The notes under the pieces are model-generated. The model ran no database searches. It saw nothing but the letters and a program-made list of their open reading frames with translations, and was not told the origin of the DNA. From an uncultured Planctomycetia bacterium (GTDB lineage: Bacteria > Omnitrophota > Gorgyraeia > CAYWPX01), in assembly GCA_964460615.1 (NCBI GenBank), contig CAYWPX010000010.1, positions 1,252 to 65,251 of the forward strand: DNA of 64,000 nt, in the 5' to 3' direction. Shown piece after piece: positions 3,001-48,548 of this stretch (its first letter is position 1; each line of letters opens with the position of its first letter). The position numbers and the translations under genes were made by a program.

Positions 3001-4321
3001 GCATTCTTCCATTAGTTTCAAACCAAATTGTTATATCATAACGGTCCAGATTATACGGAGACTCCCGCCCTTGTACACCATTTTTCCAGGTAAATATGGC
3101 TTTAAGCTGGATAGTAGGAGCTTGGGAAACATTGTAAACAAAATGGCCTGTATATGTTTTTCCTGAAGAAGCGACCGTAATCGTAACATCGGCATGATAA
3201 TCTGTTCTGGAATCCGACGGGATCCATCCGGAAATACCAAAAATATTATTTATCGGGTCGCCAAAAGCCACTGCTCCAAACGAAGCTTCAGAAGAATTAT
3301 CTAATTTTTTGATCTCAACAGCACACGTGTCACTTGCTGTAAGAGTCTTTATAACTCCTTTTTCTAAAAGAAAGGCCTGTATTTGAAAAGACTCTGATTG
3401 AGAATCCCATAAAATATTTGAAGCCACCTTTATTTCAGCAAGTAAGGCCGCAACATCAAACCGGAATTTCCCTTGATAACTTTTCCCGGTTGAAGCAACG
3501 ATTATGGTAATTGTAGCATCATAATAAACATTTCTATCAGAAGGATTCCAGCTGGAGTATGTAAAAATACCGCCTGTAGGATCACCAAAATTAGCGTCAA
3601 GAAGGACGACTTCGCTTGTATTGTCCGGTTTTAGGATTGCACAGCTCGTAACATAATCACTTGCTGTAAGACTTGTTACAACCGAGCCATTTTTGGATAG
3701 ATAGGTGGTTATTACAAACCTATCTGTGGAGGGATTATATCTAATGTATGCCTCAACATTCATATCAGAAGATAAAATATCAAAAGCACTCGATGTAGCA
3801 CTTGTGAGGCCCGAAGCTGTTGCGCTCAAGGAGTATAATTCCCCCGCTTTATCTATATTTAAACCTTTTCCGGTAAAATCAGCTACACCCGCGACTGCCG
3901 ACATGGAGGTAGTACCGCCGAGCGCTCCGCCTCCGGGGTTATTATTAATGGAAAGGGTGACGGTATCGGTGGCATTCAAGACAGTATTGCCGTTTGCATC
4001 AACAATAGTTACAATAGGCTGGGGGCTAAAAGCCTCTGTGGCGTTTGTAGTTTTGGGAGAGGTAGAAAATGAAAGAGCGGACTTAGTGGTATAGCCAAGG
4101 GTTGCTGAGCTTGAATTAGTTGAAACATTGTAACCACTATATGAACCGCCGTGATACATATCGGTGGAAAGCTCAACATAAGAATAGCCGTCATAACTGC
4201 CTCCGGTATAGATAGCGGCGTATGAAAATGCTGTAAAAGAAAATATTAAAAGACTGGATAAAATAAGGCCTGATAATATCCCTTTTAATAAAAAGCTTAT
4301 ATTTTTCTTTTTATTTTTCAT
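1..4321 (-). CDS. Giant secreted repeat protein, partial. Start ATG at 4321..4319; the C-terminus runs off the window start. Layout: signal peptide, ~700-aa N-terminal region with internally duplicated modules, then >=50 tandem 13-aa repeats with consensus x-A-G-[IV]-N-W-[SDN]-D-[LI]-x-x-[LM]-[ST].
   Basis: Hand reverse-complement translation from ATG 4321 reads MKNKKKNISFLLKGILSGLILSSLLIFSFTAFSYA... without a stop down to position 1. A 39-nt periodicity (gaccaatt...) runs from nt ~1 to ~2170. None of the other listed ORFs reaches 4321, consistent with an open frame leaving the window. The + strand ORFs 6..1544, 1560..1949 and 1992..2222 carry the antisense SDQLIP 13-mer and are shadows. Confidence 0.8.
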   Translation of the reverse strand, partial: MKNKKKNISFLLKGILSGLILSSLLIFSFTAFSYAAIYTGGSYDGYSYVELSTDMYHGGSYSGYNVSTNSSSATLGYTTKSALSFSTSPKTTNATEAFSPQPIVTIVDANGNTVLNATDTVTLSINNNPGGGALGGTTSMSAVAGVADFTGKGLNIDKAGELYSLSATASGLTSATSSAFDILSSDMNVEAYIRYNPSTDRFVITTYLSKNGSVVTSLTASDYVTSCAILKPDNTSEVVLLDANFGDPTGGIFTYSSWNPSDRNVYYDATITIIVASTGKSYQGKFRFDVAALLAEIKVASNILWDSQSESFQIQAFLLEKGVIKTLTASDTCAVEIKKLDNSSEASFGAVAFGDPINNIFGISGWIPSDSRTDYHADVTITVASSGKTYTGHFVYNVSQAPTIQLKAIFTWKNGVQGRESPYNLDRYDITIWFETNGRMLTLQGGYQEPSISIDGSPASITWAQTETTFSGYWVPPDPASEYTAAITAGYEEYYHAIYVRIVPQSSGIEVKSVFSWDKANNRYDVTVWLEYNGRKLTFIPDEAGPYGSITIGEDNILLSSDWVNNTFTGTWTPPDPTAEYTAYVEATRAYAIYNTYVKVGPAGKIELKSTFTMESDQDILYRIWLESNGVPVPLNAGDTWTITYVGMGPGGAPMEDSGELAPGAEGDTSISGTASPHPTATLDHDILANNITITHGGITYETSAVVSIATYLSTLIKAKTDTINWSDVSAIKSSTTTINWSDVTSIKSKTDTINWSDINAVKTAVGANEAESLYTKMGQVLTAIGTPTMGQGSIFEELEGIAGRQLWLSTTIGSVNWTNIESLSKAGVNWSDVAEMANVGVNWDDMRRLSIQGINWDDIEKMAASNVNWDDVSSLAALGVNWDDIFRMSRAGINWDDIAVLTDVGINWNDIKEMSIVGVNWSDLAYMTGAGVDWSETINWDNLASLTNAGVNWDDIAVMSDANVNWTGLDVMATAGINWDDISRMSIAGINWTDIDAMASKGINWENLSSMTTAGVNWDDLDVLSKAKINWADFNTLTKANINWTDFSTLSKAKINWANFETLTEAGINWSDLTTLSKAKINWADLTVLTKANVNWDDLVALSEANINWLDITSLSGAKINWGDLTILSNANVNWSDFTVLTEANINWSDLTTMTMASVNWANLNTMTEAGINWDDIEVISTKGINWADLNFLTGAGVNWDDITAISEAGINWSDFTTMTEAEINWDDIANLSTAGINWSNLTTMTEAGINWDDIEVLSTKGINWTDLMSMTTLGINWDDILLISESGINWSDLNVLTTADINWSDLTILSNININWADLNAMSTANINWSDINALSLKKINWSDLEVLSKANINWSDLTTMTEAKVNWSGLKTISESGINWDDFNVMTTAGINWANINTISTTGINWEDFEALTIAGINWSDLNILSKAKINWSDFTV

Positions 4322-4330
4322 TAAGATTTA

Positions 4331-4820: not shown

Positions 4821-4871
4821 TATTAATATTTTCTTTTGCTATAAACCATCAGCCATGAACTATGAGCTAAC

Positions 4872-5147
4872 TTACGGGGCGGTCCCCGTAAGTTGCCAAT
4901 TACGCAATCTTTGTTTAAGAAATCGCTTGCCAACTCCGGATTTTAAATATTTCTCTCTTTGTACGGCATCATTAATATTTAAACATGCTTCATAATAAAT
5001 CAATATTAACGGCCTTCTATATCTAGTTGAATATACTTTGCCATCATTATGTTCCTCTAAGCGATTTCTTAAATCATTTGTTCGGCCAGTATAATATTTA
5101 AAATCCTTTGAGCTTAATAATACGTATGTATAGTACATTGTCTTCAT
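4872..5147 (-). CDS. GIY-YIG nuclease family protein
   Basis: YTYVLLSSKDFKYYTGRTNDLRNRLEEHNDG motif. The 3' end overlaps a perfect hairpin cttacgggg-cggt-ccccgtaag. Confidence 0.85.
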   Translation of the reverse strand: MKTMYYTYVLLSSKDFKYYTGRTNDLRNRLEEHNDGKVYSTRYRRPLILIYYEACLNINDAVQREKYLKSGVGKRFLKQRLRNWQLTGTAP

Positions 5148-5153
5148 AGCAAC

Positions 5154-6791
5154 TTACGGGGCAGTCCTTGCGCATCTGCCGCCCAGCATGCTGGCGCGGT
5201 CCGGGTCTCCGCTACTTATAGCGGCCCATCTGTTTGAAACTCTGCAATCTCCAGATATAGTATCATAAGCGCCTCCCCGAAGGCCTGTTCCAACCCAATC
5301 AGTCACTCCCCGAGCTACAGTAGAATCTATGCCCGGCCAGTCAGTATTGGTAGCATTCCCTTCATAGCTGGTAGTAGTGGTTAACACCCCATCCCCATGC
5401 GTGCCTAAAAAAACTCTTCCTTCAGTCATTCCTAAGGTAACAATAAGTTCATATAAATTACCGGTTAAATCCAGGTTACCATAATAACCTGCACCCGCAT
5501 TTTCTCTAGTAGATGTACTATCAGCATATGATCCGGTTCTATAAGGCCCATCGGGAGAACAACTATCAATATTTGCATTGCCCTGGTTGGGGATTTCAGT
5601 AACTGTGCCGCTATTTGTAAGAGAAGTTGTAGCTGTTTCAAAATTTGTACTGCCCCAGCTATATTCTTCAAGTATAGGGTAATTTGGACCACGACAGACC
5701 TTTTCGTATTCAAGCTCTGTGTAGGGCCTAAGGGCTGCCCAATCAGTATATGCTGCAACATCAGGCCATGATAAATAACCACACCCTATGCACTGACCAT
5801 CAGTTGTTTCATTAAATGTCTTATCATGATCGTAATCACAACCAAATGTGATCACTCCAGCGCCAGGAGTAGTAGGGACGCGGATACCATTGCGGTAATT
5901 ATCAGCTGAAGCAATATTTGCCGCAGTAGCTGTATTTGCCAGCGCATAATAATCTCCAGTTTGAGAAGCTGTCCTCGTATTTTGCTGAACACGAGTAAGG
6001 GTATTAAGAAAATCTTTGTACTGATCTTGAGATATCTCATATTTCATCAAATAAAAAGCACTGTACCCTTTAGGGAACGTTACCGGCAATGTCCTGGTGG
6101 TAGAATCATTAAAATCATCAATACTAAACATTCCTGTAGTATTATTATTTCCAAGGCTCCCGGCACCGCCCCCACCAAGAATCAGTTCATTTTCACTGAT
6201 TATTTGTTTAGGAACGCCTGTTGTGCCGTCTTCAAATTGACCAGCCAAGCTACCACCGGATTCGCCGTCACCTACATAAAAAGCCCCGGTTGGTATATAC
6301 ACCATCTCGATACCATAAATCCTGAATACAGTTAATGGACCGTTAGCGTTGGCATCAGTTACACTGCTTGCTCCATAATCCCAGACTATCTCTACGTTTG
6401 AAGTGCTTAAAGATCCTGTGCCTGCTGCAGACCTTTGGATAAAACAACCCTTCATATCGCTAGGTACTACTATTTCCAGGGCAGTACCGGAGGTACCTAT
6501 AGAAAAACCTGTGGGGTTGGTCCCCGAGCCATTAAGCGTACCATGGCTCCAGGTTGTTCCGCCGTCAGTTGAATATTTCAGAAACACCCACGCCGCGTCA
6601 TAATTGGTATCATCCCTCCAGGAATTGCTCCAGGAAATAGTAAATTTCAGATTTAGGGTGTCATTGGTCGTATCCTGTCCGGAAACGGTGAGGCTCGTTA
6701 TTGAAAGATAGTTGGCAAAACATATGCCTTTTGAAAATAATAAAATAAAAATAAATAATGAAAACAATATAAATATTTTTTTCATAAACAC
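5154..6791 (-). CDS. Secreted formylglycine-generating-enzyme (FGE/SUMF1) domain protein with an N-terminal Asp-box (STDGGTTW) region
   Basis: Signal peptide MFMKKIFILFSLFIFILLFS. FGE-fold motifs IEMVYIPTGAFYVGDG, YLMKYEISQDQYKDFLN, LSWPDVAAYTDWAALRPYTELEYEKVCRG, GNLYELIV, RGG. Ends GGRCARTAP. Confidence 0.75.
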   Translation of the reverse strand: MFMKKIFILFSLFIFILLFSKGICFANYLSITSLTVSGQDTTNDTLNLKFTISWSNSWRDDTNYDAAWVFLKYSTDGGTTWSHGTLNGSGTNPTGFSIGTSGTALEIVVPSDMKGCFIQRSAAGTGSLSTSNVEIVWDYGASSVTDANANGPLTVFRIYGIEMVYIPTGAFYVGDGESGGSLAGQFEDGTTGVPKQIISENELILGGGGAGSLGNNNTTGMFSIDDFNDSTTRTLPVTFPKGYSAFYLMKYEISQDQYKDFLNTLTRVQQNTRTASQTGDYYALANTATAANIASADNYRNGIRVPTTPGAGVITFGCDYDHDKTFNETTDGQCIGCGYLSWPDVAAYTDWAALRPYTELEYEKVCRGPNYPILEEYSWGSTNFETATTSLTNSGTVTEIPNQGNANIDSCSPDGPYRTGSYADSTSTRENAGAGYYGNLDLTGNLYELIVTLGMTEGRVFLGTHGDGVLTTTTSYEGNATNTDWPGIDSTVARGVTDWVGTGLRGGAYDTISGDCRVSNRWAAISSGDPDRASMLGGRCARTAP

Positions 6792-8446: not shown

Positions 8447-8508
8447 AATTATTCTCTCTATTGTTTTGTTCCTTGCTATCAGCTGTCAGCCTTCAGCCCT
8501 TCCTACAA

Positions 8509-8572
8509 GCGAGGCAGGCCCGCCTGCGCAGGAATGACAAATACTTAATTTATTTTTTCTATTACCCTAACC
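8509..8572. repeat. Partial copy of the GC-rich palindromic element family (…GCAGGAATGACAAATACTTAATTTATTTTTTCT…)
   Basis: Shares GCGAGGCAGGCCCGCCTG and the GGAATGACAAAT + AT-rich tail with the elements at 9864-10066, 13501-13960 and 48404-48548. Confidence 0.5.
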
Positions 8573-8615
8573 CTCGCCTTTTGCCTAGAGTAACTTTATA
8601 CTAACAACTTTTCAC

Positions 8616-9785
8616 CTAAGGACTGGTAATCTCCTTCGCTTTCAGCTTAAGTACGTTATCCGCAATACGTTCTTTAACAATATTTGCGTATTTTGAATTT
8701 GGGTTTTTATCAATAAAGTCCTTGTAATACTTAATCGCTTTGTCGAATTTTTGTAAATAATAATCGTAGAGTACCGCCAGATTATAAGAAATATCCGCAT
8801 CACCGGGGAGGTACTTCTGGGCAAATTCATATTCATATGCAGCTTTTTTGTACTCACCTTTTTTCAGGTAGCTATTACCCAGATTAAAATGCAGCTTACC
8901 ATTCTCCTCTTTCATGCGCTCTGCCTCGGGGATGGCTTTTCTCATATCCTCTTCAAGGGATTTAAGCTTATCATCGGATTCTTTTTTTAGGGCAATGAGT
9001 CTTTTTTCAGAGTCATCTTTATAGGACTTGAATTTTGAATCCAGGTCTTTCCATTTATTAAAATAAACATCTTTGCCTCTTTCGGCTTCAAGGATCCTTG
9101 CTGTACTTTCCAGTAATTTTTTTTCAACACTCAAATCTTCAACTTCCTTAGTCAGTTTTTCTTTTTCACTTTTGTAATTTGCATTCACAGCCTCAAGCTG
9201 AGTCCTGTAATTATCGGCCCTTTCGCTTAGCATGCGAATTCTCGCAGTTGTAACGCCTTCCCTGGCTGAAATTTTGCTTAACTCCTCTTTAAGCTTTTTG
9301 ATCTCGTCTTTTAGCTTGGCATTATCATCAAGGGTTTCTCTAAGAGAATCCTCGAGCGTAGGAGTTCTTAAAACTATTGGGCTTTCAACGGAAGCAGTTG
9401 CTCCTGATTGTGAAGAAGATGCATCTTTTGCTGGGGTTAATTCTTTGGATAGGGTTTCATTTGCCTTACCGGGTATGTCTCTTTTTATTTGTAATAAGCC
9501 CGGGCTAGTAGAAGATCCCGGCTTAGATTCTTGAGGCTTTGGCGGTTCGGCGGCATTGGGTACAGTATTAGCAGTGATGCTATTTGAAACAGGTGTGGTA
9601 ATTTTAATTGCACTTGCATCGGGTGAAGCGGTTTTATTGGGAATGTCTAAAATGGCTTTTTCAGACACAGTTCCGGTGGTACTCTGGGAATAACAAGTAA
9701 TAACACAAGAAAAGATGAGGGCAAAAAATACAAAAACAAAACAAACCGATTTTTTAACAAATCCCCCGGCATTATTTTTTGCCAT
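8616..9785 (-). CDS. Membrane-anchored coiled-coil / TPR-repeat protein, possibly a secretin- or pilus-associated pilotin-like protein
   Basis: N-terminal hydrophobic segment, low-complexity S/T/P linker, long heptad-rich region, C-terminal TPR (NLGNSYLKKGEYKKAAYEYEFAQKYLPGDADISYNLAVLY...). Lies downstream of the secretin. Confidence 0.6.
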   Translation of the reverse strand: MAKNNAGGFVKKSVCFVFVFFALIFSCVITCYSQSTTGTVSEKAILDIPNKTASPDASAIKITTPVSNSITANTVPNAAEPPKPQESKPGSSTSPGLLQIKRDIPGKANETLSKELTPAKDASSSQSGATASVESPIVLRTPTLEDSLRETLDDNAKLKDEIKKLKEELSKISAREGVTTARIRMLSERADNYRTQLEAVNANYKSEKEKLTKEVEDLSVEKKLLESTARILEAERGKDVYFNKWKDLDSKFKSYKDDSEKRLIALKKESDDKLKSLEEDMRKAIPEAERMKEENGKLHFNLGNSYLKKGEYKKAAYEYEFAQKYLPGDADISYNLAVLYDYYLQKFDKAIKYYKDFIDKNPNSKYANIVKERIADNVLKLKAKEITSP

Positions 9786-9863
9786 CTATTTTGCCTCCTT
9801 GTGTGTCTATAACTTATTGTAATTAAATCTATATTGTTTATTTACTTTCTTTTTTTATTTTAT

Positions 9864-10066
9864 GGATTCCCGACAAGTAACCTCGGGAATGACAAATAGC
9901 ATATGGCGTTTCTGGATTTCCTTAGGAATTTTATGATTTAAAATTCCAAGGACCAGGGCCCGCCTAAACCACGCGGGAATGACAAATGCTTAATTTACTT
10001 TTTTTCTTCCAACCTAAACCCACTGGATTCCCGACAAGTACACTCGGGAATGACAGATAACATATG
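9864..10066. repeat. Three adjacent GC-rich palindromic elements (GGATTCCCG[A/C]C-loop-G[A/C]GGGAATGACAAAT followed by an AT-rich tail). The middle one embeds the GGAATTTTATGATTTAAAATTCC hairpin typical of the MITE-like family.
   Basis: Read directly; inverted repeats and shared 40-nt tail ATGACAAATGCTTAATTTA(C/T)TTTTTTTCTTCCAACCTAAACC. Confidence 0.6.
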
Positions 10067-10119
10067 GAGCTTAGGCCCCGCCTGAGCAAAAATAACAGCT
10101 CCTTACTCACAACTCATAA

Positions 10120-11697
10120 CTAATATTCTTTGTCCGGCTGAACGGTCTCTTTCAGGTTATATTTATCGCTCTCATAATTTTCATTTCCCTCTACGATTTT
10201 AGGGGAAAGAAGTATCACTATCTCGGTCTGTTTTTTATTGCTTGTTATACTGCGAAATAATTGCCCGACCCCCGGTATATCCATAAGTATCGGTATGCCT
10301 TGTTTATCCACTACAGACTCATCTTTTCTTAACCCGCCTATGACAATAGTCTGCCCATCCTGAACTATAACACTCGTTTCAACCAAAGTGGTATTGATAA
10401 GAGGGACTTCGGAGCCCTGGGGCGTAGTAAGAGTCGAAACCTGCGAGGATATCTCAGGTTTGATAGACATGGTAATATATCCGTCATCATTTATCTGCGG
10501 AGTAACCAGGAACTGAACTCCGACATCAATATAATGTATCTCCTCATTCACTCTCTGGCTTTCCCCTGTCCCGATAGTTGTGGTAGTAACATATGCCAAT
10601 TTATCCCCTATATGGATCTTAGCTTCTTTATTGTTTAAAATCATAATGCTGGGATTGGCAAGGACCTTTGTGTCCTCAACCTCTTTTAACATTCTTATGT
10701 CAGCGGCAAAATTGTCACTTGAAAAATTACCGACTGCAATGTTACCAAATGTCGATGCGGCGGCACTTGCTATCGGGAATGTTCCTGAAAATGTGAGCCC
10801 ATGCATCAAATACTTGCCGCCCTTTTTAAAAACACTGTCCCAGTTGATGCCGGTAGCAAGCTGAGGGTTCAGAACCAGCTGGATGATCCTTACCTGGATC
10901 AGGACTGCTTTCGTCTTTTTATCCAAAGCCTTTATTATTTCCTCAACTTCTTTAAGCCTGTCCGGAAAAGCCCTTATAACAAGCTGGTTACTTCTTGCAT
11001 CCGCCTGAACAGAACCTACGGATTTATTATCAAGTTTTTCTTTAAGCTTATTAGCGACATCATCTGGGCTGGCGTATCTAAGAGTAAAAACCTTTGTCTC
11101 GAGAGGGTGATCCATCTGTTTAATGGCATCCTCCATCTTTTTTAATTTTTCGTCAGTATCAATAAGGACCACGGAACCGGTATCCTCATCGATAACAACT
11201 TTTCCCACGTCGCTTTTGATGTTCTTTAGCGCTTCCAAAATATATGCCGGCTTGGCGTAATTAAGATATACTATCTTCATATGAGTTTCATCGCTGAATT
11301 TTTTGCCATAAATAGCCTGAAATTCCGCCTCTGTCATTATGTGAATGATATTATCGCCCAAAATTTTATAACCCAAGCCGTTTGAGATGGAAATAATATC
11401 CAAAGAATCTTTTATTGAAACGTTTTTGAGATACAGGGTAACCCTCCCTTGAATATTTTTGCTTATAGAAATATTGAAATCGCCTTTTACCGCCAAAAAT
11501 TTGTAGACGTCCACAACATCCATATCCCTGAGATCAAGGTCTATCTTTCTATCGAGTTTTGCCTTAAGCGCTTCTGAAGCAACATCCTCAAACGCCGAAA
11601 CTTCACTTATTGATAAATCGCCGGTTTTAGGGTACAAAAAGAAAGCCAATAATAATAAAAAGAAGTATATAAAAACTTTTTTAAAAGAGATCGTCAT
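10120..11697 (-). CDS. Secretin (GspD/PilQ family outer-membrane channel)
   Basis: C-terminal secretin domain motifs LANPSIMILNNKEAKIHIGDKLAYVTT..., VGVQFLVTPQINDDGYITMSIKPEISS, TTLVETSVIVQDGQTIVIGGL, IPILMDIPGVGQLFRS. Confidence 0.85.
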   Translation of the reverse strand: MTISFKKVFIYFFLLLLAFFLYPKTGDLSISEVSAFEDVASEALKAKLDRKIDLDLRDMDVVDVYKFLAVKGDFNISISKNIQGRVTLYLKNVSIKDSLDIISISNGLGYKILGDNIIHIMTEAEFQAIYGKKFSDETHMKIVYLNYAKPAYILEALKNIKSDVGKVVIDEDTGSVVLIDTDEKLKKMEDAIKQMDHPLETKVFTLRYASPDDVANKLKEKLDNKSVGSVQADARSNQLVIRAFPDRLKEVEEIIKALDKKTKAVLIQVRIIQLVLNPQLATGINWDSVFKKGGKYLMHGLTFSGTFPIASAAASTFGNIAVGNFSSDNFAADIRMLKEVEDTKVLANPSIMILNNKEAKIHIGDKLAYVTTTTIGTGESQRVNEEIHYIDVGVQFLVTPQINDDGYITMSIKPEISSQVSTLTTPQGSEVPLINTTLVETSVIVQDGQTIVIGGLRKDESVVDKQGIPILMDIPGVGQLFRSITSNKKQTEIVILLSPKIVEGNENYESDKYNLKETVQPDKEY

Positions 11698-12353
11698 CTT
11701 AATTCAATCTCCTCGCCCATATACTCTAAAATCACTTTGTCTTTATTTATGGCTTTAACTATACACGACAATATTTTGTCCCCTTCCAAAAGAAAATAGG
11801 TAACTTTAGTTTTTCCATCCTCAATCATAGCATATCTTTGTTTAGGGTCTTCTGCCCAAGAAATACCAGCTACTCGCAAATCTTTGGTTGCTTCGGCAAT
11901 CTGTGTAATACCAAATTGCTGCGCTGCAACTTTAGGCTGCTCTTCAGCTGGATTAAAAATATTTCTATTTACAAGCGTATCTATATAAAAAGTGTATTCT
12001 TTAAGCGGCAGTGATATGCCCTTATCGATAGCTTTTTTAATTTCTGCTAAATTGCTCTTAAAATCCGGGACATTATTAAGCCTCTCTATCCCGCTTATAA
12101 GTATCCCAAAATATATCAAAAGTAGTAGCCCGATAACTCCCCATAGTATCCTATTTATGCTCGTGAGAGTTGAAGCGCCTCCACCATGCGCCTGTATAAA
12201 ACCCAGCTTCTCACCAAATATTTCAAAAGCTTTTTTAACCGGCTCTATAGCGTCCAGCTGGGGATTCTTAGAAGGAATCTTCTTCGATATATCCGCCTTC
12301 CCCTCTATGGCTTTTAAAAGCTCTTTTTCGGCTGTATTGTGACTTGGTTCCAT
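11694..12353 (-). CDS. Single-TM periplasmic protein (GspB/C- or PilP-like position between ExeA and secretin); hypothetical
   Basis: One predicted TM (WGVIGLLLLIYFGILISGI). Overlaps both neighbours by a few nt (operon coupling). No recognisable catalytic motif. Confidence 0.5.
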   Translation of the reverse strand: MEPSHNTAEKELLKAIEGKADISKKIPSKNPQLDAIEPVKKAFEIFGEKLGFIQAHGGGASTLTSINRILWGVIGLLLLIYFGILISGIERLNNVPDFKSNLAEIKKAIDKGISLPLKEYTFYIDTLVNRNIFNPAEEQPKVAAQQFGITQIAEATKDLRVAGISWAEDPKQRYAMIEDGKTKVTYFLLEGDKILSCIVKAINKDKVILEYMGEEIELR

Positions 12354-13186
12354 TGACTATCAGATTCCTTTTCTATAACCTCAATAACCATCTCTTTATC
12401 TACCATCATTTTGGTCTTGCTCATAGCTAGTTCTCTAAGGCACTTGTGGCAGAGACGGATTATGCCCCTCGGGTAACCTTTTGTCCTGTAATAAACTTCT
12501 CTTATCGCTTCTTCAGCAAAAATCGGGGTTGTATTTTTATTACCGGCCTGACGCATCCTAAACTCCATCATGTCTTTTGCCTCTTCAAATCCCAGTGGAT
12601 TTAAAGTAAATTTAAAATCGATCCTGTCATAAAAATTTGATATAGTTACAATCTTCGAATACAACTCCAGCTGTCCCAATAAAACAAGCTGGATAAGCTT
12701 AAATTCGTTGGTCTCATAATTCAGTAAAATCCTAAGCGATTCCAACGTCTCAAAAGACAATTTTTGCGCTTCATCAATCAGTAATATTACGGTCTTATTC
12801 TCAGAAAGATTCTTGTGGAGTAGGAATTTCTCAAAAGCGTCTCTCATCTCTGAAGTTGAATGGCTAGCCATATCAGCCGGAAACGGGACCTGAAAATTCC
12901 TGATAAGAGAAAACAAAAATTCTTTTTCGTTCTCAAACGTAGGATTCAAGATCATATGAAAAATAAATTCTTCTCTATTATGGAGTTCTTGGATTAGTTT
13001 TCTGGAGAGCGTGGTCTTCCCGACACCTATATCGCCGAGAATTACACTTAAGCCCCTTTTTAGGCGGAGTTCGATAAGAATATTAGTAAGAGCTAAATCG
13101 TATTCTCTGGAAAGGTACAGAAAATCCGGATCCGGATTTGTCGAAAAAGGTTCTTTTTCGAAACCGAGTATTTTGTAATAGCTCAT
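12314..13186 (-). CDS. ExeA/GspA-like AAA ATPase (secretion pathway protein A family)
   Basis: Walker A ILGDIGVGKTTL, Walker B ILLIDEAQKL, typical ExeA length and N-terminus. Confidence 0.8.
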   Translation of the reverse strand: MSYYKILGFEKEPFSTNPDPDFLYLSREYDLALTNILIELRLKRGLSVILGDIGVGKTTLSRKLIQELHNREEFIFHMILNPTFENEKEFLFSLIRNFQVPFPADMASHSTSEMRDAFEKFLLHKNLSENKTVILLIDEAQKLSFETLESLRILLNYETNEFKLIQLVLLGQLELYSKIVTISNFYDRIDFKFTLNPLGFEEAKDMMEFRMRQAGNKNTTPIFAEEAIREVYYRTKGYPRGIIRLCHKCLRELAMSKTKMMVDKEMVIEVIEKESDSQWNQVTIQPKKSF

Positions 13187-13500
13187 TTTTGGCTAATTAT
13201 ACCCTAATATATTATTTATATAATATTTATAATGTATTTATATACTAGTATACTTTATAATTAAGTAATGTCAAGTTAAAATAAAAAAGTTAGAAATATT
13301 TTAGTTTTATTACGCTTAATATGATATCTGTATCACCCGCCTAATAGCATTTAATAATAATACTAAGGCAATAAAACTATGCAATAGGTAGTAGTCAAAT
13401 AGGATGGAGTATATCATGTATCGCTCATTAAAATATGAGAATTTACAGGGCAGGTAGATTTCAGTCATTTCTAAATGGTTTAGCCAGAGGTCTTATTCCT

Positions 13501-13960
13501 CTGGGTTTCCGCCTTCCCTTCACAAAGACTGGCGGGCAGGCGCGGGAATGACAAATGCTTAATTTATTTTTTTCTTCCAACCTAAACCTTCTGGATTCCC
13601 GCCAACCAAATGCGGGAATGACAAACCATGAAATTTTCGCCTGCGGCGAGACATAAAAATGCAAAGGATCTTTGGGGTAATTTCTTGTCATTCCTGAATG
13701 GTTCAGTCAGGAATCCAAGTTTTATTTCTTGTTTTCGCTTTTCTTCTGGATTCCCGCCTAAAACTTGCGGGAATGACAAATGCTTAATTTATTTTTTTCT
13801 TCCAACCTAGACCTTCTGGATTCCCGACTAAAGATCTCGGGCCTGCCTGCTCGCCTCGCGGCGAAGCCGAGGGCCGGCAGGCAGGTATGACAAAAAGAAA
13901 AAATACTGGATTTCCGCCTAAGGCGGACAGGCCCGACTAAATCTTGCCTGCCTAAAAAGG
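13501..13960. repeat. Cluster of at least 5 GC-rich palindromic elements of the CTGGATTCCCGCC-(variable loop)-GCGGGAATGACAAA family. Some are followed by the 40-nt tail TGCTTAATTTATTTTTTTCTTCCAACCTAAACC; one is in inverted orientation (…GTCATTCCTGAATGGTTCAGTCAGGAATCC…).
   Basis: Read directly. Repeated units start at 13501, 13591, 13746, 13816 and 13908; the nested hairpins are GC-rich in an AT-rich background. Confidence 0.7.
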
Positions 13961-14042
13961 CAGGTAGGATATTTTTGAAATACTCCCGCCCACAAGGGCG
14001 GACTTTCGCAATTCAAGTCAAGCGAAAGGTCAGGGGATCTAT

Positions 14043-14129
14043 ACTCCGCATCATAAAATATCACAAAAATCCCTTACTTGTTGCCTATACCGGCAACAAG
14101 ATAAGATATTTTTGTGATATTCTGCGGAG
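14043..14129. mobile_element. MITE-like element, copy C. Terminal inverted repeats CTCCGCATCATAAAATATCACAAAAAT … ATTTTTGTGATATTCTGCGGAG.
   Basis: TIRs read directly. Same family as 19929-20084 and 25795-25917, with compensatory changes keeping the TIR complementarity. Confidence 0.55.
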
Positions 14130-14162
14130 TGGCAAGTGCTTATTGATTAATAAGCACTTGTC

Positions 14163-14202
14163 TAAACAAAAAAGGGTAAAATAATCAGATTATTTTACCC
14201 TT
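14163..14202 (-). terminator. Rho-independent terminator downstream of the YHS gene
   Basis: Hairpin AAGGGTAAAATAAT/ATTATTTTACCCTT followed on the minus strand by TTTTTTGTTT. Confidence 0.6.
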
Positions 14203-14221
14203 TAAAAAAATTTTCTAAAAA

Positions 14222-14497
14222 TTAATAGCTAGAAACGTTCCTTAAATACTGTTCCGGATTCTTTTTGAACTCCTTTACAGCATCATAAGAAAAAAACCAA
14301 TAGCGTTTTCCTTTGTACCCTGTATTGAACTTCTTCTGGGTGATTTCTTTGCCAGTAACTGGGCAAACCTTATTATCTGCATCGGTCAAAAGAAGAGATT
14401 TTCCACCCATAGCAGCTTGTGTTACGTTTACATCGGCAATAATTACAGTACCTATCACAAAAGCAAAAAGTATTACCAAACCTACTAATCTTTTCAT
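14222..14497 (-). CDS. Secreted YHS-domain (metal-binding) protein
   Basis: Signal peptide, then CPVTGKEI…YKGKRYWFFSYDAVKEFKKNPEQY, which resembles the YHS/TRASH motif. Confidence 0.55.
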   Translation of the reverse strand: MKRLVGLVILFAFVIGTVIIADVNVTQAAMGGKSLLLTDADNKVCPVTGKEITQKKFNTGYKGKRYWFFSYDAVKEFKKNPEQYLRNVSSY

Positions 14498-19928: not shown

Positions 19929-20084
19929 CCCTACTTCGTAACATATCGTAAAAATTTCTACCTCGAGAAATCATAAAATGATTTCCGAGACTAAGTCCTT
20001 GGAATTTTATTATTTAAAATTCCGAAGGGCCCCGGAAATCTAAAAGATTTCCAGGTGGCGATATTTTTACGATACTCAGTAGGG
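19929..20084. mobile_element. MITE-like element, copy A (~156 bp). TIRs CCTACTTCGTAACATATCGTAAAAAT … ATTTTTACGATACTCAGTAGGG; internal hairpin GGAATTTTATTATTTAAAATTCC.
   Basis: Read directly; lies in the promoter/5' region of csp gene 19664..19873. Confidence 0.6.
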
Positions 20085-25794: not shown

Positions 25795-25917
25795 CCCGCA
25801 TCGTAAGATATCGCAAAAATTTCTTCCCCGATAATTCCGAAGAATTTTCGGGACTAAATCTTTGGAATTTTAGGATTTAAAATTCCTAGGGGCGATATTT
25901 TTGCGATACTCTGCGGG
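25795..25917. mobile_element. MITE-like element, copy B. TIRs CCCGCATCGTAAGATATCGCAAAAAT … ATTTTTGCGATACTCTGCGGG. Inserted in the intergenic gap inside the Ehr operon.
   Basis: Read directly; same family as 19929-20084. Confidence 0.6.
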
Positions 25918-25973: not shown

Positions 25974-27821
25974 TTAGAACCTGCCCATAAATACAATTAA
26001 TAATATCAGTGTCATAAAAATATAAGCGAGATACAGATGAATAGACCCCGGCTGAATACGCCTTGCGTACTTGGCCAATTTAAAAATCAAACTAAGCATC
26101 GGCTCATATATATACTCTTTAAAAACTTTGGTAGTATGCGTTTCATATCTAAAAGATTTGACATAATAGAAAGACTCTCTGATCTTTTGTGTTTTGCGGT
26201 AGGGCAAAAGAAAAAAACTGAAAGCGATCCTGAATGGCTTTGAAAAAGCCGTAGCAGTATATTCATTCCTCGGGTCAAGCTTATAGTAACCGCAATCCCA
26301 TGTTTTATATATAACGGCTTTTTTCCTTTTAAACATATACAGCATTACTCCTAATAGCCCCGTCGCTACCAGCACAATCGCAAGTATCGGTAAAGATAGA
26401 TAAATATCTGCCCCCGAAACCTGCGGATTAGCCTGCAGACTAATAATAAAATTATTCGGAGTAAAACTCATATTACTTATATCAACCCCGGCAGAAAAAC
26501 CCGCTATCTTACTAAGCATCTTTATAATGAATCCCGCCGCTAAACCAAGAAGAATTACAAGTACTGATAATATTGCCATAGATATCCTCATTGATATCGA
26601 TACCTCTTTGGCGTCTTTAGCGTTTCTACTTCTTGGCTGGGCAAGAAATATTATCCCGAATGCCTTGATAAAAGTGGCTATGGCTAAACCACCTGTGAGA
26701 CAAAGTAAAGATGCTACTATGCACAAAAATAGTTTCGTGCCGCCCAAAGTGTTAAGAGCCCCCAGGAAAAATGCCTGCAAAGTTAACCACTCGCTGACAA
26801 AGCCATTTAAAGGCGGTAAAGCTGATATCGCCATTACTCCTACCAGAAAATAAATAGCGGTCTGGGGCATCCGCTTTATAAGCCCGCCAAGTTTTTCCAT
26901 ATCGCGAGTTCCGGTAGCCTGGTAGATACTGCCGCTGCCTAAAAATAGAAGGCCTTTAAATATTGCATGATTCACGAGGTGATATAGCCCGGCTATTAAA
27001 GAAAAGATTGCAAGATATGGCATATTTATGCTCATAAAAAATATTGCCAGCCCCACTCCAAGCAGGATAATCCCGATATTTTCAACACTTGAATAAGCCA
27101 AAAGCCTTTTTATATCTTTTTCCATGAGGGCATATATGACACCCACTAAACATGTGAATGTAGCAAGTATGATTATAAGAATTCCCCACCACGAAGCGCC
27201 CACTCCGAGTATGAAGATAACAAATCTTATAAGCCCGTATATTGCGGTTTTGATCATTACGCCTGACATGATACTTGAGATATGGCTTGGAGCCTGCGGG
27301 TGGGCATATGGCAACCAGATATGTAAAGGCACAATGCCTGCCTTGGTGCCAAAACCTACTACAAGCAGAAGAAAAACTGCATTCCTGATATTCTGCGGCA
27401 TAAGCATACAACCACTTTTGATGCTTAATAGATCGAACGAACCGGTATATTTATAAAGAATCATAAAAGCAGCTATTAAAAATGCTGTTCCGATATGAGT
27501 CATTATTATGTATATTGTACCCGCCTGAATAGATTTTTCATGGGTGGAGTCAAACACGACGAGAAAGTATGAAACGAGTGACATGATCTCCCATATTACA
27601 AGAAAGAAGATAATATTTTTAGCCGTCACAACTAAACACATCGAGATAACAAAAATAATCATTAGAACCCATGCTAATAGGATCTTTGAACTAGGGTAAT
27701 CTTTTTTGAGGTAGCCGATAGAGTATATGGCGGATGGGATCGATACAATAGCAATCGCTATCAGGAAAAAAACTGACAGTGGATCAACTAAAAACAGTTT
27801 TGAAATACTTTGAAAATCCAT
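25974..27821 (-). CDS. NuoL / HyfB-like antiporter-type membrane subunit
   Basis: 615 aa, polytopic, WLPYAHPQAPSHISSIMSG…LLAYSSVENIG motifs. Confidence 0.8.
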   Translation of the reverse strand: MDFQSISKLFLVDPLSVFFLIAIAIVSIPSAIYSIGYLKKDYPSSKILLAWVLMIIFVISMCLVVTAKNIIFFLVIWEIMSLVSYFLVVFDSTHEKSIQAGTIYIIMTHIGTAFLIAAFMILYKYTGSFDLLSIKSGCMLMPQNIRNAVFLLLVVGFGTKAGIVPLHIWLPYAHPQAPSHISSIMSGVMIKTAIYGLIRFVIFILGVGASWWGILIIILATFTCLVGVIYALMEKDIKRLLAYSSVENIGIILLGVGLAIFFMSINMPYLAIFSLIAGLYHLVNHAIFKGLLFLGSGSIYQATGTRDMEKLGGLIKRMPQTAIYFLVGVMAISALPPLNGFVSEWLTLQAFFLGALNTLGGTKLFLCIVASLLCLTGGLAIATFIKAFGIIFLAQPRSRNAKDAKEVSISMRISMAILSVLVILLGLAAGFIIKMLSKIAGFSAGVDISNMSFTPNNFIISLQANPQVSGADIYLSLPILAIVLVATGLLGVMLYMFKRKKAVIYKTWDCGYYKLDPRNEYTATAFSKPFRIAFSFFLLPYRKTQKIRESFYYVKSFRYETHTTKVFKEYIYEPMLSLIFKLAKYARRIQPGSIHLYLAYIFMTLILLIVFMGRF

Positions 27822-44117: not shown

Positions 44118-46991
44118 CTATAAAGGCAGTACAAAATGGAACTCTGAACCCTTACCTGACGGCGAGGCAGGCCCGCCTGACGGCGAGGCAGGCCCGCCTG
44201 ACGGCGAGGCAGGCATTGATTCAGCCCATATTTTACCTTTGTGCTGATCTATGATCTCTTTACATATCGCCAGCCCCAAGCCGGTCCCGGACGTTCTTTT
44301 TTCTCTCGTTGTATCAAGCTGTTGAAAGCTCTGAAATAATTTGCCCATGTCATTAGGACTTATCCCCGGCCCGGTATCCTTGACTATTACATGGATCGAA
44401 TCCGGATCTTTTTTTGCTATTATTTTGATACTCCCTTTATCTGTAAATTTGGCGGCATTATTTACTAGATTCGTAAGAACCTGAGTAATCCTATCTTTAT
44501 CAAATTTGAATATTGGCAGGCCATCCTCAACTTCTTTCTCTAAAATAAGCCCTTTTTCTTTAGCCACCAAGTACATAGACTTAGAGACTTCGTTTATTAC
44601 TGAGTATATATCATTTTCTATGATCTCAAACTGCATCTTTCCTGATTTAAGTTTTTGGAAATCAAGCACATTATTAACCAGCCGATTAAGCCTGTCAGCG
44701 CTGTGCCTAACCGTACTCAAAAGATCTCTCTGCTCTTCATTTATATCGCCCGTTAACCCGTCCAGAATAATGCTTACGCCTTCTTTTATAGGCGTGAGAG
44801 GAGTCCTTAACTCATGCGACACCATAGATATAAAATCTTCTTTTAGCGCCACAACTTTTTTCAGCTCATCTTCAGCCTTTTTGAATAAAGTAACATCTCT
44901 CACAGTAGCTTGCAGCAATATCCGGTCCGCGATCTTAATTTTTGAGAGAAGTACTGTCGCCGGAAAAACCCTCCCGTCGATAGTTTTATGGATCCATTCA
45001 AAATAATGCGAGCCTTTCTGAAGAGCTATAAATATCATCTTCTTTGCCTTGATCTCCGACAAAATACCATCCGGCTGATATTCAGGAGAAAGGATTGCCG
45101 GGCTCGTTTTGGCGAATTCTTTTTCATCTGCGATATTAAATAATTTAAGGGTGGCAGGATTAGCTTCGATAAAATTATCGTCAGGGTCAAGAATCATAAT
45201 AGCATCCGAAGAAGAATTATATAGAGTTTTATATTTGGCTTCGCTTTCCAGAATCGCATCTTCAAGTTTTTTGCGATCAGTAATATCCCTGCAAACGCCC
45301 ATAATACCCTTAAATTCTTTGTTCGTCGAAAAAACCGCAGCTGCGCTTACGTCTACCCAAAATGTAGAGCCATCTTTGCCCAAAACTTCAAGCTCAAAAC
45401 GTTCTATAAGATTTATTTTTTTGTCTTTTACCCTTTGCATAATATCATTAAAAATATTTTGGGCGGCAATTTTTGAGGAAGGGGTTAATACATTTTCAAA
45501 AGTACTGCTACCCTCAAACTCGGGGGCAAAACCTATTTGACGCCTTGTGGAAGGGCTTGTATAGATAAATTTACCGGATGAATCAAGTATCCAGACCATA
45601 TCATTGGCATTATCGGCAAGCAAGCGGTATCTTTCCTCGCTCTGACGCAATTTTTCCGAGTCAATGATCCTGATCTGAGAAACAACAAAATATATGCTGA
45701 ATATTACAAAAACAAAAATAACTACAACAATACCATAGATCCGGAAGCCATAAACATAGTGATCCCATAGTTTCTTGGATATATCTATACCCAGAACCGC
45801 TATGATTTTTTCTGTACCAAAGCTTCTTATCGGCACAAAAGCCGAAAACCATTCCCCCCATTCATCCTTATACGGCCCGGCAACAACCTCCTTACCGTTT
45901 TTAAAAGTATCCAACAGAACTATCGGATAATTTTTATAAATATCCCCCGGTTTAGCATAATCTTTAGAGCTTTCCGGCTCGGCATCTACATAGAAAAAGA
46001 CCTCTTTATCCCTTATGCCCATAAGATAAACAAATTTCTGGTTTAATCTGGCGTGGCGGATATGAGTCAACTGCTCTTTAAGCCTAATAAAATCATCTGT
46101 AGTTTTATCAGCCTCGGTTCCGGTAAGCGTAAGTATACGACGGGGATTGACCGCTGACGAAGCAATGCGCGTATTTATCAATAAACTGTTACTGTACTCA
46201 TTTTTAGCATAAATACCTATCTCTTCCGTAATAACCCATCCAAAAAATAAAATCGACAAGAAAACCACTACTACAATATACTTTTTACTTATGTTATTTC
46301 CGCTAACAGGCAATATGTCCGTTGACCTGAAATAAAACCAGAGCACGACCGCCGCCAGAATACTGAGCACGGCCCTAAAAAGCTGTATCGGAACTCCTGT
46401 AAAATCTTTGAAGGTTTGAATATTAATAAAATACGCCGGAGCAAATTTTCCTACGGGAACGATCATCTGGGTAAAAGCATATAATATAATGATAAGCCCC
46501 AAATAAATAAAAAGCTTGTCTACCTGTTTGCCGGATTTGACGGCCTTGGGACGCGTCGCTATGGCCGCTCCTGCCCATACACCGCCAAGAACTCCAAAAA
46601 AATAACGCGAAAAAATATTTACGCCGGTTGCTCCTTCTATTACCCAGCCAAACGCCAATATAAGAACCATCGGAACATAGATCCATCTTCCGAAAAACTT
46701 GCCTGACCTTGCTTGCTGGCTACTCCGTCCAAGCTCAAATAGGCACATAAAAGAAGCTGCCAAGAAAAAAAGCCGGATATTTTTGAATATATCACTATCG
46801 CCGATACTAACGCTGAACATATCAAGCCATTCATTAATACCGTGCAAAAAACCAAAGAGCCCGAGCCATTTCCAGATAGGTTCGTTTTTTTGTGATTTAT
46901 ATAAAAAAAACGAAGCTATGGATAATATAAAAAATCCCAGGCCATAGACAAAAAATATATAATCCATCTGTTCAGCAAAAAAATCACTCAT
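44118..46991 (-). CDS. Membrane-bound sensor histidine kinase (TM N-terminus, extracytoplasmic sensor, PAS, HisKA, HATPase) with a C-terminal GGPASPS x3 insertion
   Basis: H-box SHELRTPL, N box LTNLVNNAAKFT, G boxes DTGPGI / GTGLGL. Confidence 0.85.
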   Translation of the reverse strand: MSDFFAEQMDYIFFVYGLGFFILSIASFFLYKSQKNEPIWKWLGLFGFLHGINEWLDMFSVSIGDSDIFKNIRLFFLAASFMCLFELGRSSQQARSGKFFGRWIYVPMVLILAFGWVIEGATGVNIFSRYFFGVLGGVWAGAAIATRPKAVKSGKQVDKLFIYLGLIIILYAFTQMIVPVGKFAPAYFINIQTFKDFTGVPIQLFRAVLSILAAVVLWFYFRSTDILPVSGNNISKKYIVVVVFLSILFFGWVITEEIGIYAKNEYSNSLLINTRIASSAVNPRRILTLTGTEADKTTDDFIRLKEQLTHIRHARLNQKFVYLMGIRDKEVFFYVDAEPESSKDYAKPGDIYKNYPIVLLDTFKNGKEVVAGPYKDEWGEWFSAFVPIRSFGTEKIIAVLGIDISKKLWDHYVYGFRIYGIVVVIFVFVIFSIYFVVSQIRIIDSEKLRQSEERYRLLADNANDMVWILDSSGKFIYTSPSTRRQIGFAPEFEGSSTFENVLTPSSKIAAQNIFNDIMQRVKDKKINLIERFELEVLGKDGSTFWVDVSAAAVFSTNKEFKGIMGVCRDITDRKKLEDAILESEAKYKTLYNSSSDAIMILDPDDNFIEANPATLKLFNIADEKEFAKTSPAILSPEYQPDGILSEIKAKKMIFIALQKGSHYFEWIHKTIDGRVFPATVLLSKIKIADRILLQATVRDVTLFKKAEDELKKVVALKEDFISMVSHELRTPLTPIKEGVSIILDGLTGDINEEQRDLLSTVRHSADRLNRLVNNVLDFQKLKSGKMQFEIIENDIYSVINEVSKSMYLVAKEKGLILEKEVEDGLPIFKFDKDRITQVLTNLVNNAAKFTDKGSIKIIAKKDPDSIHVIVKDTGPGISPNDMGKLFQSFQQLDTTREKRTSGTGLGLAICKEIIDQHKGKIWAESMPASPSGGPASPSGGPASPSGKGSEFHFVLPL
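44153..44212. repeat. 21-bp tandem repeat x~3 (CCTGACGGCGAGGCAGGCCCG) inside the kinase coding sequence, encoding PASPSGG repeats
   Basis: Read directly; the unit shares GAGGCAGGCCCGCCTG with the intergenic GC-rich palindromic element at 8509-8530. Confidence 0.7.
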
Positions 46992-48300: not shown

Positions 48301-48403
48301 TTTTGATGTCCTTTATTAAGAATTGATCGTAGTTTTATAATTTAAACTAACAAAAAAACTTAAGTCTGTCAACTACACAAAACAGGGTTCGAAAAATAGA
48401 ATA

Positions 48404-48548
48404 CTGGATTCCCGCCTTCCCTCCACAAACACTGGCGGGCAGGCGCGGGAATGACAAATAATTAATTTATTTTTTCTCTTCCAACCTAAACCTTCTGGAT
48501 TCCCGCCGGAGTTTACCCCGTACTTATTACGGGGAGGGAATAACAAAT
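48404..48548. repeat. Two tandem GC-rich palindromic elements (CTGGATTCCCGCC…GCGGGAATGACAAATAATTAATTTATTTTTTCTCTTCCAACCTAAACC, then CTGGATTCCCGCC…CCCCGTACTTATTACGGGG…GAATAACAAAT)
   Basis: Near-identical to the units at 13501-13590. Confidence 0.7.

Follow-up and report, generated by a model that had tools for sequence, protein, structure and literature searches.

Intergenic palindromic repeats in an Omnitrophota-like genome as probable members of the NTS/SRM hairpin family of Ssn nucleases

We examined a 64-kb stretch of contig CAYWPX010000010.1 (64,000 nucleotides, hereafter the window), which belongs to an Omnitrophota-like metagenome-assembled genome (MAG) and carries clusters of GC-rich palindromic repeats in its intergenic DNA. 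From their sequence, the repeats are very probably copies of the hairpin family termed Neisseria Transformation Sequence (NTS) or Ssn-related motif (SRM), which contains the palindrome known under the older name dRS3. Taken whole, the best explanation, which we hold to be likely, is that this genome harbors NTS/SRM repeats together with an Ssn partner. The family, its enzyme, and its wide distribution are already known (2025); the present case is a new host lineage with extra anatomy, namely, a subclass with a 9-nt loop, branched-loop variants recurring across phyla, and, outside Neisseria, NIME-like arrays whose spacer is private to the lineage. No concept is changed by the finding. The puzzling repeats gain a name and a testable partner, the Ssn single-strand nuclease, and both the NIME-like arrays and the 9-nt-loop NTS subclass are extended to an uncultivated phylum.

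Detection and identity of the repeats

The exact core ATTCCCG-N(4-34)-CGGGAAT was observed five times in the window, always on the plus strand, whereas 0.02 matches were expected from shuffled sequences. With up to two mismatches, GGGAATGACAAA gave 24 matches against 7.9 expected, and an arm search allowing mismatches located 11 left and 11 right arms within four loci and almost nothing convincing outside them. The first-pass annotation had proposed a family of GC-rich palindromes in intergenic DNA with at least 10 copies at four loci. The family is real and the loci were right: we count about 11 copies, of which 6 are intact, 4 are decayed or interrupted, and 1 is a remnant (Table 1). The same annotation had suggested a covariance-model (CM) search to test for a small RNA; the search recovered an oriented DNA hairpin family. 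The model drew on 82 copies, all from other genomes, and on no window sequence. It found six strong copies (36-45 bits, E 4e-11 to 2e-8) and four weak ones corresponding to the decayed or interrupted elements (E 0.003-0.17). These matches fall in three of the four loci; the 8.5-kb locus holds an arm-matched remnant below the CM threshold.

On the plus strand, the unit reads CTGG-ATTCCCG[C/A]-loop-[G/T]CGGGAAT-GACAAA. Read from the minus strand, it is TTTGTC-ATTCCCG[C/A]-(9-nt loop)-[G/T]CGGGAAT-CCAG, the units running TTTGTCATTCCCGC…GCGGGAATCCAG. Folding as single-stranded DNA gave an 8-bp stem and a 9-nt loop for five intact copies, with z-scores of -2.6 to -5.8. Every cluster is intergenic and flanked by co-directional genes. 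The copies had been described as occurring in both orientations; one inverted copy does exist (13683-13720), but the statement was too strong, as 10 of the 11 share the minus-strand orientation. The CM scored 36-45 bits on the correct strand and 8-13 bits on the opposite strand, where the palindrome alone is matched. Because the model favors the correct strand, the non-palindromic flanks belong to the element, which is an oriented hairpin and not a bare palindrome.

Table 1. Copies of the hairpin element and of the AT-rich spacer in the window.
Positions	Strand	Feature	Evidence
8487-8541	-	Remnant, GTCAT-side arm only (CAGGAATGACAAA on the plus strand)	Repeat family D7, arm matching; below CM threshold
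8542-8575		Spacer copy 5, diverged	Repeat search
9860-9897	-	Intact hairpin, A:T variant at stem pair 8, ATTCCCGA…TCGGGAAT then CCAT	CM 41.7 bits, E 4e-10; exact core; fold z -2.6
9910-9987	-	Split copy, arms 9974-9986 and 9912-9922 with an insert of about 50 nt carrying a hairpin of another family (GGAATTTTA…TAAAATTCC) between them	CM 16 bits, E 0.03; arm mapping
9987-10022		Spacer copy 3	Repeat search, sequence reading
10021-10058	-	Intact hairpin, A:T variant	CM 40.7 bits, E 7.9e-10; sequence reading
13499-13556	-	Decayed long-loop copy, minus-strand 3' arm mutated to GCGGAAAC	Repeat family D7; CM 13.5 bits; family hairpin fold lost
13556-13590		Spacer ("tail") TGCTTAATTTATTTTTTTCTTCCAACCTAAACCTT, 28% GC, between two cores	Repeat family D5, arm mapping
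13589-13626	-	Intact hairpin TTTGTC-ATTCCCGC-ATTTGGTTG-GCGGGAAT-CCAG	CM 43 bits, E 1.6e-10; SRM pattern match; 8-bp stem, 9-nt loop, DNA fold z -3.2
13683-13720	+	Inverted copy, compensated stem variant (CCTGA/TCAGG), GTC-ATTCCTGA-ATGGTTCAG-TCAGGAAT-CCAAG	CM 36.1 bits, E 2.1e-8; fold z -5.8
13744-13781	-	Intact hairpin TTTGTC-ATTCCCGC-AAGTTTTAG-GCGGGAAT-CCAG	CM 45 bits, E 4e-11; SRM pattern match; fold z -3.5
13781-13815		Spacer copy 2, 1 substitution	Arm mapping
13814-13895	-	Copy with a 44-nt GC-rich hairpin (CCTGCCTGCC…GGCAGGCAGG) breaking the GTCAT-side arm	Sequence reading; CM 13.4 bits; fold
48402-48459	-	Arms and flanks intact, 29-nt branched loop formed by a nested GCCTGCCCGCC…GGAGGGAAGGC hairpin	CM 39.4 bits, E 2e-9; fold -13.1 kcal/mol, z -3.7
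48459-48494		Spacer copy 4	Repeat search, arm mapping
48493-48548	-	Decayed copy, GTT for GTC, arm ATTCCCTC, nested loop insert CCCCGTA…TACGGGG-TAAACTCC	CM 19.3 bits, E 0.003

Several copies are related more closely. The two A:T variants have in common a short downstream trailer, TARCATATGG. The decayed copy at 13499-13556 is 92% identical to 48404-48475 and is a sister of the branched-loop copy. Furthermore, the composite variant at 48493-48548 is also present in Syntrophaceae MAGs, with 86% identity to loci L002 (59 nt) and L032 (51 nt).

In 2025, Chenal et al. (Nat Commun, PMC11893778) extended dRS3 to an oriented 28-nt NTS, CGTCATTCCCGCGMAVGCGGGAATCYRG. They reported that SsnA of Neisseria meningitidis (Nm), a GIY-YIG protein of 94 amino acids, binds and cuts the hairpin solely as single-stranded DNA, on one strand only and a few nucleotides 5' of the hairpin, and that the RNA form is not bound (PMC11893778). 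Mutagenesis assigned cleavage to the three nucleotides 5' of the palindrome and binding to the 3' C, the most important base, with the palindrome sequence also contributing (PMC11893778). These determinants, that is, GTC directly 5', C directly 3', and the palindrome ATTCCCGC/GCGGGAAT, were observed in all six intact copies of the window. The published SRM pattern, HGTCWYN(0-2)YYVSBRHN(0-5)WNVSBRGN(0-2)RNCYNB, was matched on the minus strand by three copies (9954-9984, 13591-13623, and 13746-13778), and mononucleotide shuffles gave 0.2 matches; two more matches lie within coding sequence and are probably due to chance. The repeats thus share with the Ssn NTS/SRM system the palindrome, the flanks (GTC on the 5' side and C-YRG on the 3' side), and the intergenic clustering, and an Omnitrophota MAG (L018), from the same phylum, has the same loop class flanking an Ssn-like gene. 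They differ in that the loop is 9 nt or long and branched, whereas that of Neisseria is a 4-nt GMAV, and in that the host is an Omnitrophota-like MAG with no partner ssn gene within the window.

Distribution of the core and the partner nuclease

When genomes, one for each species, were scanned for GGATTCCCG-N(4-34)-CGGGAATGACAAA, at least 120 loci were retrieved. Among the matches listed, MAG loci with the core belonged to Nitrospirota, Omnitrophota, Patescibacteria, Bacteroidota/Ignavibacteria, Planctomycetota, Desulfobacterota, and Chloroflexota, and the core was also present in Alpha-, Beta- and Gammaproteobacteria and others. At least 120 viral or proviral contigs of IMG/VR (L123-L242) contained it as well, which brought the total to at least 240 loci. 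Confinement to the four loci of the window, which the first-pass annotation had expected to tell against its proposal, is therefore false for the core and holds only for the AT-rich spacer described below. On some viral contigs the core lies within a few hundred bases of the end (13-37 in L135, 30-54 in L202, and 4302-4326 of 4384 in L168); such cores could be integration sites or assembly breaks.

The commonest form elsewhere has a 4-nt loop and the dRS3-type geometry, with a 6-nt interior between CCCG and CGGG in 101 of 141 cases. The 9-nt-loop class recurs in 43 distinct sequences, with loops such as ATGCTTTAA. With GTCAT…ATCCA as the sole anchor, 123 distinct copies were compared, and their inner stem pairs form in 92-98% of cases; shifting the partner by one position lowers this to 58%. 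Full compensatory changes were found at stem pairs 3, 6, and 8 of the flank-anchored copies, in which six inner pairs are free, and double compensatory changes at five of eight pairs in an alignment pre-filtered for pairing. These comparisons indicate that the hairpin is kept under selection. Stable and covarying hairpins would also suit a family of small structured RNA genes. However, Rfam 15 at gathering thresholds gave no match in the whole window, so that the match to a known structured RNA which the first-pass annotation had regarded as damaging to its view did not appear, and a permissive Rfam scan of 13150-14260 gave only sub-threshold hits at chance level, the best of which scored 26.7 bits (threshold 55.8) at a place outside the cores. 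Neither a promoter nor a terminator brackets the units, many copies are decayed or interrupted, and the hairpin is equally a DNA hairpin whose known ligand acts on single-stranded DNA only. We therefore consider RNA genes extremely improbable.

A forward-oriented partner was observed within 90 nt on the CTGG side of 60 of 135 cores (L002-L121), typically 15-25 nt away, compared with 8 of 134 on the other side. The window contains one such convergent doublet, in which 13683-13720 and 13744-13781 are separated by a spacer of 26 nt. The doublets elsewhere resemble REPINs or an NTS-ssn-NTS unit without its gene. As a separate observation, stuttered half-sites (…GCGGGAATGACAAA repeated) follow a core in L036, L100, L012, and L010.

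The first-pass annotation had suggested an invasive REP/BIME-like or MITE-like repeat. Invasive intergenic palindromes comparable to REP/BIME are what was found, but assignment to the REP/RAYT system or to classical MITEs did not hold. REP heads are of the GTAG type. If the repeats were REP/BIME-type elements mobilized by RAYT, a Y1/HUH enzyme of the IS200/IS605 kind, and spread as doublets (REPINs), the GC-rich palindromes clustered in intergenic mosaic arrays and the convergent pairing of cores across about 20 nt in other genomes would be accounted for; in outline, the NTS/SRM system works like that of REPIN and RAYT, with oriented extragenic hairpins, mosaic clusters, doublets in other genomes, and a small enzyme dedicated to single-stranded DNA whose gene has sites of its own on its flanks. 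The flank conserved on the 5' side, however, is GTC (GTC-ATT) and not a GTAG-type head, and the enzyme genes abutting cores in the retrieved loci encode a GIY-YIG nuclease instead of an HUH/Y1 transposase. Pfam analysis of the 38 open reading frames (ORFs) scanned in the window found no RAYT/Y1, IS110, DDE, or integrase gene. Furthermore, REPs are usually species-specific, whereas the core of the window is near-identical over many phyla. Mobilization by RAYT is thus very unlikely. The analogy with REP/BIME has been drawn in the discussion of the published paper on the family, which uses neither the word MITE nor miniature (PMC11893778).

Like the subterminal hairpins of IS200/IS605, the NTS/SRM element is a single-stranded DNA hairpin recognized by sequence and structure and cut a few nucleotides to one side; unlike them, the window repeats come without a transposase gene and without a left-end/right-end pair, and no strand bias exists across genomes. 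A bias placing the cleavable strand on the lagging-strand template, as in IS200/IS605, was considered and rejected: 10 of the 11 window copies lie on the G-rich coding strand, but the 86 other loci scored were unbiased, with splits of 44:42 relative to GC skew and 47:39 relative to the coding strand.

The doublets elsewhere could also be read as a short spacer enclosed by two terminal inverted repeats of 30 nt, and scattered, partly nested copies would be natural for MITEs derived from a DDE insertion sequence and moved in trans by its transposase. No unit has a target-site duplication beside it, which argues against a classical MITE; moreover, the arrangement in the window is mostly direct and not inverted, the conserved unit is a single hairpin with asymmetric flanks, and the scanned ORFs include no DDE transposase. 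We give this origin very little weight.

Returning to the Ssn explanation, Chenal et al. reported an association of Ssn genes with SRMs in many phyla, the gene often being flanked by its own sites. In their data, 71% of ssn homologues have SRMs around them, and 81% of the genomes that contain more than 200 SRMs also encode an ssn homologue (PMC11893778). When the ORFs of 241 retrieved loci were searched with two Ssn-like queries, six ORFs were obtained, five of which lie 5-22 nt from a core (L018, L037, L125, L174, and L236, of which the last three are viral); the sixth was a weaker match and did not abut a core. In L018, the Ssn-like gene has 9-nt-loop cores on both sides and adjoins an array with AT-rich spacers of its own. 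L037 has the NTS-ssn-NTS layout, with the forward site 10 nt ahead of the start codon. Searches of NCBIfam and PDB sequences with Ssn-like proteins returned nothing informative.

Several results weigh against the Ssn explanation. Neither the strict 28-nt NTS nor the strict dRS3 (ATTCCC-N8-GGGAAT) has a match in the window; both fail because the window loops are 9 nt or longer, and ATTCCC-N13-GGGAAT occurs four times. The nearly uniform orientation in the window is not a property of the family, as the other loci are unbiased. No Ssn of the NTS-flanked type (cd10448-type, single-domain GIY-YIG of about 94 amino acids) is encoded in the 64 kb, and the sole GIY-YIG ORF of the window (4872-5147, minus strand, Pfam E 1.3e-13) shows 36% identity over 64 amino acids to that type. 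Since the 64 kb contains no gene for an NTS-flanked-type Ssn, the partner nuclease of this organism is inferred; that an active one is encoded in this genome seems reasonably probable.

The GIY-YIG ORF of the window was considered as the cognate nuclease, which is unlikely given its different subfamily and different flanking repeats. The ORF encodes a single-domain protein of 91 amino acids and has a direct copy of AACTTACGGGGCRGTCC on either side in the region 4869-5167 (two copies, 0.11 expected), and one of the copies sits in the perfect hairpin AACTTACGGGG-CGGT-CCCCGTAAGTT. Both the ORF and the upstream gene of 545 amino acids end in a repeat-encoded …TAP*, as would result from insertion of a 282-bp gene cassette that duplicated 17 bp. 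The family of the GIY-YIG protein comprises about 1,475 homologues, mostly of about 86 amino acids and on short contigs, with many in Patescibacteria; the locus of one homologue (L243) has a similar flanking inverted repeat, GCCCGTAAGAAAT … ATTTCTTACGGGC. The ORF and its repeat may be a second GIY-YIG/hairpin pair with another specificity.

Spacers, arrays, and a possible mechanism

The first-pass annotation had described an AT-rich tail of 40 nt after each copy. In fact, this sequence is a 35-nt spacer that follows 5 of the approximately 11 copies; each of its five copies stands after one core and four of them also before the next. The GC content is 46-60% in the cores and 24-32% in the spacers, compared with 39.6% in the window. 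The best-kept block consists of an arm, the spacer, and the next arm: 59 of 61 nt are identical between 13541-13602 and 13766-13826, whereas the loops differ. Two JGI metagenome scans for the spacer gave no match, so that it is either lineage-private or unsampled.

In 2007, Bentley et al. described dRS3 as a 20-bp repeat, ATTCCC-N8-GGGAAT, and NIMEs as dRS3 arrays with RS spacers of 19-214 bp and a wave in GC content, confined to Neisseria (PMC1797815). The window clusters likewise have palindromes separated by repeated spacers, with a peak-and-trough GC profile as in NIME arrays. In both, ATTCCC…GGGAAT palindromes alternate with AT-richer spacers, and the arrays adjoin surface or pilus-type genes. 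The window arrays differ in having N13 instead of N8, one main spacer family of 35 nt, and short arrays of 2-5 units.

The intergenic region 13187-14221 had been regarded as almost wholly composed of the repeats. Core and spacer material, however, extends over approximately 13499-13930 and accounts for only about 430 of the 1035 bases; 13187-13480 is AT-rich DNA of promoter type, and 13960-14221 contains other hairpin families and the terminator of the upstream gene. A short-read contig of the same organism (Logan SRR12487046, L001) stops within this 13.5-kb array, 385 nt upstream of the ATPase gene, and because it ends inside the array, the repeats are seen to break assemblies. The arrays also account for spurious small ORFs called across them.

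The hairpin and its tail had further been taken for a terminator module. Two points speak for a role as transcription terminators or mRNA 3'-end stabilizers, acting as RNA hairpins downstream of genes: every cluster has co-directional genes on both sides, so that read-through would place the hairpins in transcripts, and REP-like hairpins can stabilize mRNA. A scan for a GC-rich stem followed by a U/T run within 0-2 nt called only 13941-13970 (plus strand), the nested 13947-13968 (plus strand), and 14203-14171 (minus strand), none of which is a core. The strand of the genes (minus) has no U-run, and the T-run on the plus strand starts about 14 nt past the stem. The largest array is placed after the strong canonical terminator at 14203-14171 and before a promoter-like site of the downstream operon at 13274-13247 (11 of 12 consensus matches), which indicates a role at the level of DNA rather than RNA. 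Unpaired, sequence-specific flanks conserved across phyla would not be expected of terminators, and it was the RNA form of the hairpin that Nm SsnA failed to bind (PMC11893778). Taken together, these findings leave a terminator or stabilizer with hardly any probability.

According to another explanation, the repeats are target sites for a recombinase of the IS110/Piv type and the arrays are scars of repeated integration and excision. Indeed, dRS3 is the integration site of the Neisseria Nf prophages, which use a phage transposase/recombinase (PMC1797815), and the core was found in the IMG/VR contigs mentioned above. The scanned ORFs of the window, however, include no IS110-type gene or prophage, and the explanation covers the use of the sites, not their oriented flanks or their spread. 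We judge it quite improbable as the main cause; as a secondary use of the sites, it is possibly compatible with the Ssn explanation.

Under the Ssn explanation, the hairpins would extrude when the DNA becomes single-stranded, for example at replication forks, on incoming transforming or conjugative DNA, or in the course of repair. An Ssn, a small GIY-YIG nuclease with a single domain and a gene elsewhere in the genome, would then bind the hairpin and, as Nm SsnA does, would nick the DNA a few nucleotides 5' of GTCATT; for 10 of the 11 window copies, the nicked strand would be the minus strand. The repeats may be selfish passengers of the ssn unit, which is IS-like in its layout (NTS-ssn-NTS). 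Where the conserved arms repeatedly broke and recombined, cores and spacers would have been stacked into the NIME-like arrays, and other small hairpin elements would have been inserted into the loops and arms of the arrayed cores. The proposed growth of the arrays at the arms fits the conservation of the arm-spacer-arm blocks and the difference of the loops. In Neisseria, SsnA reduces the integration of transforming DNA that bears the NTS (PMC11893778). The consequence for the host is likely a local modulation of single-stranded DNA recombination around the flanked genes, not transcription termination.

A bolder reading, which we regard as unlikely, is that NIME-style array building is intrinsic to Ssn/NTS in distant phyla, here Omnitrophota, instead of a peculiarity of Neisseria and its filamentous phage recombinase, with arrays preferentially bracketing surface loci of pilus/secretin type. 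If true, it would imply that the system has a conserved part in the control of single-strand-DNA recombination at these loci. As a variant, the subclasses with a 9-nt or a branched loop, both conserved across phyla, would mark distinct Ssn specificities. Ssn enzymes are under development as site-specific tools for single-stranded DNA, and the loop-length and branched-loop subclasses recurring across phyla are therefore leads to new specificities.

Neighboring genes and other repeats of the window

The genes around the repeats share the minus strand without exception and are of ordinary chromosomal kinds, among them those for FGE-sulfatase-like proteins, a TPR protein, a secretin with a GspC-like protein and an ExeA-like ATPase, ABC transporters, and histidine kinases. 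All Pfam matches of the 38 ORFs were to housekeeping functions, including also complex I, AcrB, and OEP. The named best matches of the fused NuoC/D protein, with 64-68% identity, all came from Omnitrophota, which is the basis for calling the organism Omnitrophota-like. A scan for tRNA and tmRNA found none in the window. The three clusters at 8.5, 9.9, and 13.5 kb (8447-14221) delimit the TPR gene (8616-9785) and the operon 10120-13186, which encodes the ExeA-like ATPase, the GspC-like protein, and the secretin; this gene order resembles that of an MSHA-type pilus module. The blocks bounded by the clusters echo the NTS-gene-NTS arrangement known from Neisseria, where it surrounds genes for pili and surface structures (PMC11893778).

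Other hairpin families are present in the window. Family D10 (GGAATTTTA..ATTTAAAATTCC) was found at 9921-9951, inside an NTS-type element, and at 19981-20030 and 25844-25893. The GATATTTTTGYGATAYTCTGCGG family occurs at 14098-14127, within a long hairpin (14040-14130), and at 25887-25916 and 27369-27398. The histidine-kinase ORF 44118-46991 (minus strand) carries, at its 3' end, three tandem copies of a GC-rich unit of 21 nt, GACGGCGAGGCAGGCCCGCCT (44147-44215), and the GGCAGGCCCGCC motif of this unit recurs in the loops or inserts of NTS-type copies at 8494-8526, 13527-13541, and 13838-13885.

Near the start of the window, a gene of the 23S-rRNA-intervening-sequence family (four-helix bundle, PF05635; 4542-4820, minus strand) lies inside 33-nt inverted repeats (4331-4363/4838-4870) that are 91% complementary. 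It is apparently disrupted by a 62-nt hairpin insert with the direct repeat CCTCTGCAAT on either side (4590-4599/4652-4661). Furthermore, positions 1-2100 consist of a run of 39-nt (13-codon) repeats with a CCCA(A/G)TT motif, in 24-34 copies of 60-75% identity, which presumably represent a repeat protein gene running off the start of the window.

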